Origin: a virus
Lineage: Duplodnaviria > Heunggongvirae > Uroviricota > Caudoviricetes
Virus record (IMG/VR): IMGVR_UViG_3300029468_000145
Direction: 5' to 3' (one strand)
DNA length: 4,389 bases
The notes below the pieces were generated by a model, which did not search any database, was not told the DNA's origin, and saw only the letters and a list, made by a program, of their open reading frames with translations. A program made the translations under genes and the position numbers. Below, in pieces: positions 511 through 2,874 of the stretch; within the stretch, counting starts at the first letter, position 1, and each line of letters starts with the position of its first letter.

Positions 511-753
511 ATGTTCAAACGCTGCATCACCAAGTGTGGAAGCACACCTGACATCCAAGCTTTTATTAATGAAGATGGTAAGCTTGTTGTTGAGAGGAGT
601 GGTCCTTTTATTAGCAAACAACTTATCATTACCTCTCCAGCGGAGATGGCCGGGGAATGGATAGTTTCTGAACCAGAGGAGTTGCACATCCCGCTTCCTT
701 ATGGCCCTCAGGGACTGATTTATAACCGTTATGTTCAGAAGGAGGCGGGTTGA
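511..753 (+). CDS. Hypothetical small protein (80 aa)
   Basis: ORF with ATG at 511, preceded by a G8 tract (496-503) 7 nt upstream that can pair with the anti-SD. The candidate extended -10 promoter lies just upstream. An in-frame stop at 490-492 fixes the start. Balanced amino-acid composition. The competing antisense ORFs (478-924, 447-689) are low-complexity and run through the promoter. No family recognised. Confidence 0.45.
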   Translation: MFKRCITKCGSTPDIQAFINEDGKLVVERSGPFISKQLIITSPAEMAGEWIVSEPEELHIPLPYGPQGLIYNRYVQKEAG

Positions 754-1032
754 CAATGTCAGGCATAACATCGCCGAGAAATCGAAAGAAAAACAGAACA
801 AGGTAAACGTTGACCTTGCAGCATCAGGCATGGAGTACAGAGAGCGCCTTAACATGCCTGTTATCACTGAGCAGGTATCATGAGAGCAACCTGAGCACTC
901 ACGCGAGTATTTCATGGAGCGCATCAGATACTATCGCGAGCAGTCGTTAAACATGCCCAAGGGAAGCAACCCATGGTATATCGATATGGATGAACAGAAC
1001 GCCAAGAAGTAAACGCAATTTGAACGAATGCG

Positions 1033-1058
1033 AACCCGCCGAGTGCGGGTTTTCTTTT
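1033..1058 (+). terminator. Intrinsic (rho-independent) terminator T1
   Basis: Stem ACCCGC (1034-1039) pairs with GCGGGT (1045-1050) around a 5-nt loop CGAGT, followed by T-run TTTTCTTTT (1050-1058). Lies 21 nt after the TAA at 1010-1012 that closes the frame-2 reading frame. Confidence 0.6.
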
Positions 1059-1063
1059 ATCTG

Positions 1064-1088
1064 AACTCGCTACGGCGAGTTTTGTTTT
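1064..1088 (+). terminator. Intrinsic terminator T2, tandem to T1
   Basis: Stem AACTCGC (1064-1070) pairs with GCGAGTT (1075-1081) around tetraloop TACG, followed by TTTGTTTT (1081-1088). Ends 3 nt before the GGAGA Shine-Dalgarno of the 1102 ORF. Confidence 0.55.
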
Positions 1089-1101
1089 ATGGAGACAAGA
1101 A

Positions 1102-1446
1102 ATGTCAGATTTGGCTATGAAAGTTTTGAAATGGCAATCGACTGGCGATGTTGGCATCAGTAGCGCAACTCTTGCCTCAATCGCATGTGGACTGAAAAAG
1201 AATATCTATGATCATGGCTTCGGTGCTCCACATGACGCAGCCGATTTCAGACGATGCGTTGCACTTGTTGAGCAGATTCCAGAAATCAGAGATTCATTCG
1301 ACAAGGTTGCAAAGCGCGTTCCGGCATTCAAAGGCATCCTCAACGAATGGGATTCTCTCGTTGCTCTGTTGAAGTCTGAAATGAAGATACACGGAAACAA
1401 AGCACCAGAGACTTACAGAAGAATCAGCGAGCTACGCAAGGACTAA
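1102..1446 (+). CDS. Hypothetical protein (114 aa), function unknown
   Basis: ATG at 1102 with GGAGA (1091-1095) 6 nt upstream; TAA stop at 1444-1446. Clean ORF with ordinary composition and no overlapping plausible alternative. I do not recognise a family from the sequence (MSDLAMKVLKWQSTGDVGISSATLASIACGLKK...). Confidence 0.65.
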   Translation: MSDLAMKVLKWQSTGDVGISSATLASIACGLKKNIYDHGFGAPHDAADFRRCVALVEQIPEIRDSFDKVAKRVPAFKGILNEWDSLVALLKSEMKIHGNKAPETYRRISELRKD

Positions 1447-1523: not shown

Positions 1524-1715
1524 ATGACCGATACCAGCCTGATTCCTGAGAAAGAAGTGATGAACAAGCTCGGTGTTTCATCACGTCAGACAATCTGGAA
1601 CTATACCAAACGGCACGGATTTCCGAAGCCAGTCAGAACCCACCCCAAATCATACCTTCGTGAAGCTGTTGAAGGGTGGATTCTTAACGGTGGCGTTAAT
1701 CAGAAATGCTCCTGA
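1524..1715 (+). CDS. alpA: AlpA/Vis-family small helix-turn-helix protein (prophage transcriptional regulator / excisionase-like), 63 aa
   Basis: ATG at 1524 with GGAGA (1513-1517) 6 nt upstream; TGA at 1713-1715. Translation has the characteristic AlpA/Xis-type HTH (...EVMNKLGVSSRQTIWNYTKRHGFPKPVR...YLREAVEGWI). Size and position next to a P4-type integrase fit this family. Confidence 0.75.
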   Translation: MTDTSLIPEKEVMNKLGVSSRQTIWNYTKRHGFPKPVRTHPKSYLREAVEGWILNGGVNQKCS

Positions 1716-2874
1716 TGTGCCAGAACAATTTATCAGCGTGAAGCTCATACGCTTTGCGCTGAGCCTCTATCCAGTCGTGTTTATTGTACACGGACATTAT
1801 CCCGCCAAGTTCATGACCGAGCATTCGCTCAGTAACATGAGGCTCGACATTCATCTCGGACAGACGTGTAACAAGCGTTCTTCTGAAATCGTGTGTTCGC
1901 CAGTAACCTAGATCCATCCCTCCCCTTATTCTATTTACGAATCGGTTGGCTGCAGCGATGCTGATCGGTTTGTTTATGTCTTCTCCAGGGAAAAGAACAT
2001 CATTGTACGTTGTCATGGCCTTTTCGAGAAAAGGCTTAATTTGTTCGAAGATTGGACGGCGGATAACATTACCCATCTTGCTATGCTCTTTCGGTACGGT
2101 CCATACGTTGTCCAGCAGGTCAAATTCTGTCTTTGTTGCCAGCCTAAGCTCTGAGAGCCTCGCCCCCCACAGCATAAGCATCTGATGAAGGAGCTTATTT
2201 GACGTAGACGCACGGCTTCTTTCAATAGCAAGCCAAATCTTAGCCAGTTCGTGATACGACAGTACCCGATCCCCTACCTCAGCGCGGGAGCCGAAGTCCC
2301 TTGGTTGGATGCTCATAATTGCGCAACTATCTATCAACTGACGTCGCATGCACCAACTTATTGCTGATCTTAGTTGACTTAGCACTTGCCTTGCTCGGCG
2401 TGGATTATCTCTTTCTTCTTCGGTAAGCAGGTCAACCCATTGCTTAACCGTGATAGAAGATGCCGGACGATTAGGAAAGGCGTCATGCATGCGCTTCATA
2501 ACCGTTGATCGGTAAAGTGCCTGGGTCTTTTCTCTGAGAGTTGTAGAGACGTAGTTGTCGAACCAGTAGTCGAGACACTGGGCGACCGTCATGGAGTTCT
2601 CCACCTTCTCTTCAAAATAAGTGCGTGGATCCGTTCCTGAGAAATAGAGCTTTCGCAAGTCAGCAGTGATCTGTCTGGCATCCTTCAAAGACAGGGATGG
2701 GTATCGACCAAGCCCAAGTCGATTAGGCTTGCCATGCCAGCGATAGCGGTACTGGAACTGGATGACCCCCTTCGGTGAAATTCGTACGCTGAGGCCATCG
2801 GCATCAGCCACTTCTTGTGGGCCCGAATATGGTTTACCATAAATAGTACGCAGTTTTGTGTCGCTTATAGCCAT
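1696..2874 (-). CDS. int: Site-specific tyrosine recombinase, P4-type phage integrase (392 aa)
   Basis: Full-length ORF on the minus strand. N-terminus MAISDTKLRTIYGKP... resembles the P4-integrase arm-binding domain. The C-terminal catalytic region has the recombinase signature: R in ...GARLSEL..., H-x-x-R in ...THDFRRT..., and the H/Y pair in ...LGHELGGIMSVYNKHD.... Stop is TAA (reverse complement of 1696-1698). Confidence 0.95.
   Translation of the reverse strand: MAISDTKLRTIYGKPYSGPQEVADADGLSVRISPKGVIQFQYRYRWHGKPNRLGLGRYPSLSLKDARQITADLRKLYFSGTDPRTYFEEKVENSMTVAQCLDYWFDNYVSTTLREKTQALYRSTVMKRMHDAFPNRPASSITVKQWVDLLTEEERDNPRRARQVLSQLRSAISWCMRRQLIDSCAIMSIQPRDFGSRAEVGDRVLSYHELAKIWLAIERSRASTSNKLLHQMLMLWGARLSELRLATKTEFDLLDNVWTVPKEHSKMGNVIRRPIFEQIKPFLEKAMTTYNDVLFPGEDINKPISIAAANRFVNRIRGGMDLGYWRTHDFRRTLVTRLSEMNVEPHVTERMLGHELGGIMSVYNKHDWIEAQRKAYELHADKLFWHIRSISD

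Follow-up and report, generated by a model that had tools for sequence, protein, structure and literature searches.

In the passages of two papers that deal with it (PMC2528190, PMC7556043), DNA polymerase III's theta subunit is described as non-essential and as stabilising the proofreading subunit epsilon. The same passages, which summarise Taft-Benz & Schaaper 2004 and Chikova & Schaaper 2005, 2007, report that the Hot protein of phage P1 can replace theta and stabilises epsilon (Chikova & Schaaper 2005, cited in PMC2528190 and PMC7556043), and that Hot is expressed both in lysogeny and in lytic growth (PMC2528190, PMC7556043). In the relevant part of PMC2528190, suppression of dnaQ49 temperature sensitivity is given as the Chikova & Schaaper 2005 assay of epsilon stabilisation.

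We analysed a 4,389-nt stretch of viral DNA (IMG/VR record IMGVR_UViG_3300029468_000145), hereafter the window, which carries a homologue of theta and Hot at positions 731-1012 of the plus strand. The region retains clear homology to the family, bears two lesions, is distributed among many genomes as one predominant allele, and has accumulated substitutions in a relaxed pattern. We are confident that it is a non-functional remnant of a phage gene for a theta (HolE) homologue of ~85 residues. By analogy with Hot and theta, the ancestral gene presumably stabilised epsilon for its phage.

Genomic context of the theta-like gene

E. coli EH01-18-04-A (NZ_CP063515.1) contains the window with 100% identity. 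There it makes up the right, int-proximal end of a lambdoid prophage whose insertion site immediately adjoins sbcB. The genes run in the order cII, cI-like, N, ral, RecT, ead/Ea22, DUF550, an 80-aa ORF, the theta-like gene, a 114-aa ORF, an HTH/xis-like gene and integrase, with the theta-like gene in the early-left accessory region, between the ead/Ea22-type genes and xis/int. Immediately upstream, the 80-aa phage ORF (511-753, plus strand; phrog_9613, 169 bits), annotated as a hypothetical protein, ends in a stop that abuts the native theta start. The 114-aa phage ORF downstream (1102-1446, plus strand; phrog_1229, 173 bits) is under purifying selection. Beyond it lie an AlpA/excisionase-like HTH gene (1524-1715, plus strand; phrog_66, E 1.9e-8; a weak match to Pfam Phage_AlpA; HTH regulator according to PGAP) and a prophage tyrosine integrase (1696-2874, minus strand), identified by its annotation and by the Pfam domains Arm-DNA-bind_3 and Phage_integrase in the identical gene of L078 and other loci. 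The integrase is the last prophage gene before chromosomal sbcB (ATG 3056). It is convergent with the xis/AlpA-like gene, the 3' ends of the two overlapping by 20 nt, and a terminator-like hairpin (1483-1502) lies just upstream of the latter.

Two hairpins separate the theta-like gene from the 114-aa ORF. T1 (1032-1052, plus strand) resembles an intrinsic terminator, with an 8-bp stem containing five GC pairs followed by a T-run, and T2 (1063-1082, plus strand), likewise terminator-like, falls within a conserved segment at ~1047-1100 that serves as the leader of the next gene. This segment, comprising T2 and the leader and Shine-Dalgarno sequence of the 114-aa ORF, is 96-100% conserved in >1200 E. 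coli genomes and recurs in many Stx-converting and lambdoid phages; in phage 2851 it stands directly upstream of a homologous 114-aa ORF, next to int. Its carriers far outnumber those of the theta pseudogene.

Several further features of the region were recorded. A run of 42 N at 353-394 hides the DUF550 gene's 3' end together with the spacer behind it, where the identical genome reads cgcagcaagatgggtgatgaaaacaagta..., with nothing unusual. Two antisense ORFs (478-924 and 924-1157, minus strand) and a +1-frame ORF (810-950) gave no Pfam match and were taken as incidental. The same module occurs in visibly degraded prophages of other strains (L002:769-1185, L003:181-1409), and in strain E308 cII lies almost directly before a truncated dATP/dGTP pyrophosphohydrolase gene.

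Homology to the theta/Hot family

A preliminary description of this DNA had drawn attention to a frame at 719-1012 with a lone internal TGA (881-883), and translation of 716-1012 in frame 2 bears this out: a stop is followed by 54 sense codons (FITVMFRRRRVDNVRHNIAEKSKEKQNKVNVDLAASGMEYRERLNMPVITEQVS), the TGA, 42 sense codons (EQPEHSREYFMERIRYYREQSLNMPKGSNPWYIDMDEQNAKK) and a TAA (1010-1012), so that the frame extends over 98 codons with a single interruption. The TAA is the original stop of the theta-like gene and is followed by T1, as had also been described, the stem beginning 19-21 nt downstream depending on the stem edge chosen. By a rough estimate, a 98-codon ORF with one stop has a chance of ~4-5% per such stretch, and the six-frame ORF list of the 4.4-kb window contains many ORFs of comparable size. 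The length of the frame alone is therefore not beyond chance, and it is homology that makes 719-1012 real as the relic of a gene.

When the stop is read as Arg, the translation scores 104.4 bits with Pfam PF06440 (DNA_pol3_theta; cut-off 34.6; E 2.6e-30), the match extending over profile positions 2-67 of 70 and across the stop. The alignments to P1 Hot (PDB 1se7/2ido; E 7.4e-29) and to E. coli theta (PDB 1du2; E 1.5e-16) likewise pass straight across it. The best PHROGs family is phrog_1105, 'DNA polymerase III theta subunit' (115.5 bits), and 834 homologues were found among the 5.8 billion proteins searched, the majority of them 85 aa long and named theta subunit. The region thus reaches the profile score of the family, but the uninterrupted frame of ~76-87 codons that members possess is broken by the TGA at codon 43 of 85, and the native start and ribosome-binding site are out of frame with the theta domain. 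Judged by sequence, the region would be classed as a relic of the theta/Hot family and not as a functional member. The option of an inactivated gene, one of several raised in the preliminary description, is the one that proved right.

In an alignment of 25 close homologues (81-99% identical), residues V26, A27, A42 and R43 are invariant; the window has M, E, S and the stop at these positions, and all four states are derived in its lineage. Theta itself carries E at the A42 position. An AF2 model of the intact homologue P0004 (pLDDT 84) comprises helices at residues 11-31, 38-44, 47-64 and 73-84. Measured against this model, the longest possible product of the window stops at residue 42 and would be without helices 3 and 4, and positions 884-1012 (plus strand), into which the Pfam match continues past the stop, would represent an untranslated remnant of the coding sequence for the theta fold's third and C-terminal helices.

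A different derivative of the family was seen in ~16 viral contigs (L062-L077, e.g. L064:1501-1950), in which the first ~30 residues are theta-like (MSKWSIAAKPKDEQNKVNVDLAFSGVACK...) and are joined to an unrelated C-terminal part of ~120 residues that includes a hydrophobic segment. This ORF looks like a chimera built on a fragment of a theta gene.

A displaced start and a nonsense codon

The native translation start lies at 741-758 on the plus strand, with a Shine-Dalgarno sequence, GGAGG, at 741-745 and the ATG at 756-758. This ATG sits 2 nt past the stop (751-753) of the upstream 80-aa ORF, an arrangement that, from its sequence, would be typical of a coupled start. It is in frame 3 and reads a 16-codon ORF to a TAA at 804-806, while the theta domain is in frame 2. 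DNA alignment to the intact locus L004 places a 1-nt deletion between G763 and C764 (plus strand), after codon 3: the start region reads ATGTCAGGTCATAACATCGC in L004 and ATGTCAGG-CATAACATCGC in the window, the 1-nt gap falling directly after ATG TCA GG (ATGTCAGGTCATAAC against ATGTCAGG-CATAAC). The deletion is common to 49 of 49 close loci, all of which have ATG(T/C)CAGGCATAAC. Because the GGAGG at 741-745 serves ATG 756, which the deletion has put out of frame, the theta frame retains no ATG with a Shine-Dalgarno sequence, and ATG 731 is a surrogate in-frame start without one. The preliminary description was correct in that no ATG of frame 2 has a good Shine-Dalgarno, but overlooked the start-proximal deletion as a second lesion. 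A programmed -1 frameshift leading from ATG 756 into frame 2 was also considered and set aside: the only candidate site, the non-canonical run CGA AAG AAA AAC (783-794), lacks an X XXY YYZ heptamer of the canonical kind, and translation of the product would in any case end at 881.

The other lesion is the nonsense codon itself, TGA at 881-883 (plus strand), which stands in place of Arg43 (85-aa numbering) and differs from CGA by one C>T transition. CGA is the sole Arg codon that lies one transition from a stop. The sister allele (L035, L007; ~97% identical) has GTA GCA CGA, and the window GTA TCA TGA, at the corresponding codons. A search for homologues with a sense codon at this position, as proposed in the preliminary description, returned Arg in all intact homologues, encoded by CGT, CGC, AGA or CGA in those of viruses, and the residue is invariant across the 25 aligned homologues; the stop aligns with the R of 'vaREQPE' in Hot and of 'veREQPEH' in theta. 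A second, decayed and far more diverged theta copy in two IMG/VR contigs (L058:1501-1665, L060:1501-1665; ~60% protein identity, several stops) also carries TGA in the position of this Arg codon ('PVITEQVA*EQQEH'), which reflects either a recurrent CGA>TGA change or an old shared tract.

The motif ME..R..LNMP does recur on the two sides of the stop, as had been noticed, but it is not an ancestral internal repeat. The changes VA>ME (830/834) and L>M (953) created it; L035 has GVAYRERLNIP and MERVRYYREQSLNLP at the corresponding places. Since neither the sister allele nor the outgroups have the repeat, we regard it as a coincidence of derived, lineage-specific substitutions.

Together these features suggest a path of inactivation. 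The 1-nt deletion after codon 3 would have uncoupled the body of the gene from ATG 756 and its Shine-Dalgarno sequence at 741-745, and a C>T change would have turned the CGA of the invariant Arg43 into the TGA at 881-883. The deletion probably came before the nonsense mutation, since the CGA sister lineage also has it. Ribosomes starting at ATG 756 would make a 16-residue out-of-frame peptide, and weak initiation at ATG 731 would end at 881, past helix 1 and most of helix 2; with a product that ends there, the modelled helical bundle is predicted not to form. The remnant would then drift neutrally and hitch-hike with its neighbouring genes as prophage modules recombine. We infer that the gene is neither expressed nor functional, and the present copy most likely does nothing; low-level translation from ATG 731, or a function of the 50-residue fragment, is possible.

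Distribution and age of the TGA allele

The two alleles were counted with allele-specific 41-mers in which no 28-nt seed can avoid the variable base. Of 5426 complete E. coli genomes, 84 have the TGA allele and 0 the CGA allele. IMG/VR, NCBI, Logan and ENA together supply ~40 independent loci with this TGA. Its 50-aa truncated product is recorded in 29 variants, the commonest of which, P0123, occurs on 706 contigs and differs by one residue from the window's own 50-aa product. Besides modules with the sbcB-type integrase, the allele is found in modules with a lambda-type int/Exc beside a pectinesterase gene (L080), with an excisionase of torI type next to a gene for an MFS transporter (L003), and in a LysR/GntP neighbourhood (L083). 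The phage collection contains no isolated phage with the allele: none of its records covers >=80% of 700-1100, and the best theta matches there are Klebsiella phages with 72-79% identity.

An error of sequencing or assembly at 881 in an otherwise intact gene would need only a one-base difference from CGA, but the independent assemblies, with the TGA in the 84 complete genomes and the ~40 further loci, refute it, and its probability is negligible. The occurrence of the allele in so many complete genomes and in several integration modules means that it is neither an error nor recent. The preliminary description had named a recent inactivation as one option, and the recency does not hold: the allele extends over hundreds of contigs and has since acquired further changes. 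We conclude that this is an old pseudogene, spread with its neighbours through mosaic recombination. The predominance of TGA over CGA (84 versus 0) fits such hitch-hiking and would equally fit selection for the truncated form.

Public annotation already records the pseudogene. NCBI's pipeline PGAP gives 731-1012 the label 'DNA polymerase III subunit theta', pseudo, internal stop (IQS17_RS05250, NZ_CP063515.1), and two other inspected genomes carry the same annotation. The label names the internal stop alone; the 1-nt deletion that displaces the true start is absent from it.

Decay and substitution pattern

Further changes have accumulated among the relatives that share the start deletion. A 1-nt deletion at 970 is present in L007, L008 and L037, and the resulting forms, P0002 and P0141, continue through the terminator; in L055 and L059 two nucleotides (865-866) are deleted; L036 has a second stop, GAG884>TAG; and ATG 756 is lost in L006. 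In L003 (CUVET18-1475) an IS3 insertion lies just upstream of the pseudogene, and L028 has a different upstream breakpoint. These lesions represent further independent decay within the start-deletion clade.

The substitutions tell a similar story. Between the window and its CGA sister L035 there are seven replacement differences and the nonsense change, with 0 silent differences; the probability of the 7:0 pattern is 5e-4 at a family-typical omega of 0.12 and 0.22 under neutrality. Outgroup polarisation assigns V26M, A27E and A42S, all at invariant residues, to the derived changes on the window lineage, whereas dN/dS among intact family members is 0.05-0.15. Variants among the close loci amount to 5 silent, 13 replacement and three indel events in the pseudogene; the downstream 114-aa gene, taken as a control, has 26 silent and 14 replacement variants in these loci (Fisher p=0.011). 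This pattern in the sequences points to relaxed constraint, as evidence that is supportive and not decisive, because few variants are available (7 and 18) and related loci do not provide independent samples. The upstream 80-aa ORF has 7 silent and 12 replacement variants among the close loci, including one nonsense allele at 683, and may itself be weakly constrained or decaying; as it also looks relaxed, part of the signal could be regional.

Alternative readings of the interrupted frame

The preliminary description had left room for stop-codon recoding, two small genes and a non-coding RNA ending at T1, none of which our results support. Recoding of the UGA, whether by readthrough as Trp or Arg or by insertion of selenocysteine, would allow a full-length theta-like protein still to be made. 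Of the E. coli stop codons UGA leaks the most, which lends this reading some appeal, as do three 93-aa 'intact' database versions with Trp at the site (P0001, P0138, P0139). However, the DNA of the P0001 locus (L006:493-774) has the TGA and does not translate to P0001 under code 11; the caller on this short metagenome contig must therefore have used a code in which TGA is Trp, presumably genetic code 4, and P0001 was rejected as an intact homologue with a sense codon, being an artefact of the translation table. P0138 and P0139 come, like P0001, from short ENA/Logan metagenome contigs. The RNA at 881-945 folds no better than shuffled sequence (z -1.14), which leaves no SECIS-like element downstream of the UGA, and no tRNA was found in the window or in 29 kb of the prophage. 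Selenoproteins and recoded genes are marked by a SECIS-like hairpin and by a UGA within otherwise intact, constrained genes; here the native start is already out of frame, relatives have a second adjacent stop or frameshifts, purifying selection is seen on neither side of the stop, and intact homologues have Arg at the site. We consider recoding exceedingly unlikely. The same low standing is given to a non-coding RNA that ends at T1 and in which the open frame is incidental. Two strong terminator-like hairpins do follow the region, and an Rfam scan of the whole window gave as its sole match a weak, sub-threshold one to rsmX (950-1085; 24.2 bits, E 0.14), but the family's gathering score is 56, far above this value, and the two hairpins themselves make up the match. 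No promoter-like site is predicted upstream. The protein homology, at E 1e-30, comes with a divergence from intact homologues of dS ~1 and dN/dS 0.13-0.15, and protein homology with third-position divergence identifies the region as former coding sequence; that the frame is an accident of an RNA gene is hardly credible.

Two small genes, of 50 aa (731-883) and 32 aa (914-1012), or a selected truncated theta fragment that contacts epsilon, would account for the fact that both pieces are called in many assemblies (706 contigs for the commonest 50-aa variant, 32 for the 32-aa form), that they have matching PHROGs families (phrog_10131, 50 positions; phrog_29833, 52 positions), and that the TGA allele is dominant in its lineage. 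Yet fragment 'families' of this kind arise from any common pseudogene through gene callers and clustering. Neither ATG 731 nor ATG 914 has a Shine-Dalgarno sequence, the sole good one serving the out-of-frame ATG 756; the 50-aa piece terminates inside helix 2 of the helical bundle, going by the P0004 model; and the derived replacements fall on invariant residues, with a replacement/silent ratio that is about neutral. This reading is very unlikely. A related one, that the truncated allele is kept for a function of its N-terminal fragment or of low-level readthrough, is a long shot. If it were true, ~40-50 N-terminal residues (helix 1), made in small amounts from ATG 731 or through rare -1 slippage after ATG 756 at 783-794, would bind epsilon without stabilising it and could in this way modulate the mutation rate of the host; alternatively, UGA readthrough at a low level would supply Hot-like protein in a very small, tuned amount. 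Selection, and not hitch-hiking, would then lie behind the predominance of TGA (84 versus 0) and its spread across modules.

The reading that we prefer is that of an ordinary pseudogene, a small accessory phage gene that is dead and drifting and carries little biological weight. What it illustrates lies mainly in annotation: a common pseudogene can yield 'families' of fragment proteins in protein databases and PHROGs (phrog_10131, phrog_29833), and a switch to TGA=Trp on short metagenome contigs creates false 'intact' homologues that could mislead tests of stop-codon recoding, while the 'internal stop' label of PGAP misses a second lesion. As a dead gene of 280 bp in ~1.5% of complete E. coli genomes, it also provides a modest example of hitch-hiking in mosaic prophages.

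Comparison with Hot, theta and intact prophage homologues

P1 Hot shares with the window copy the Pfam family PF06440, the repaired window sequence aligning to Hot residues 5-77 (E 7.4e-29), and both are phage-borne copies of a host replisome accessory subunit. Hot is intact, expressed and 83 aa long, whereas the window copy is frameshifted near its start, has a nonsense codon at an invariant Arg, and resides in a lambdoid prophage and not in P1. E. coli theta (HolE) is homologous over residues 3-67 (E 1.5e-16), with the common core 'KVNVDLAA.G...ER.NMPVI.E.V.REQPEH'; it is chromosomal, intact and 76 aa long, in contrast to the window copy, an inactivated prophage paralogue that is nearer to Hot.

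The remaining counterparts are the intact 85-aa theta homologues of enterobacterial lambdoid prophages (P0004, P0006, P0099; phrog_1105), also found in phages HK639 and SEN34 and in Klebsiella phages. The window copy agrees with them in length, in the C-terminal ...QN.KK and in 72-80% of protein residues, and their start, MSGHNIAEKS, corresponds to that of the window's out-of-frame ATG 756. Some of these homologues are placed elsewhere in the phage genome, for example in the nin region in L004. Unlike the window copy, they are uninterrupted and under purifying selection (dN/dS 0.05-0.15).
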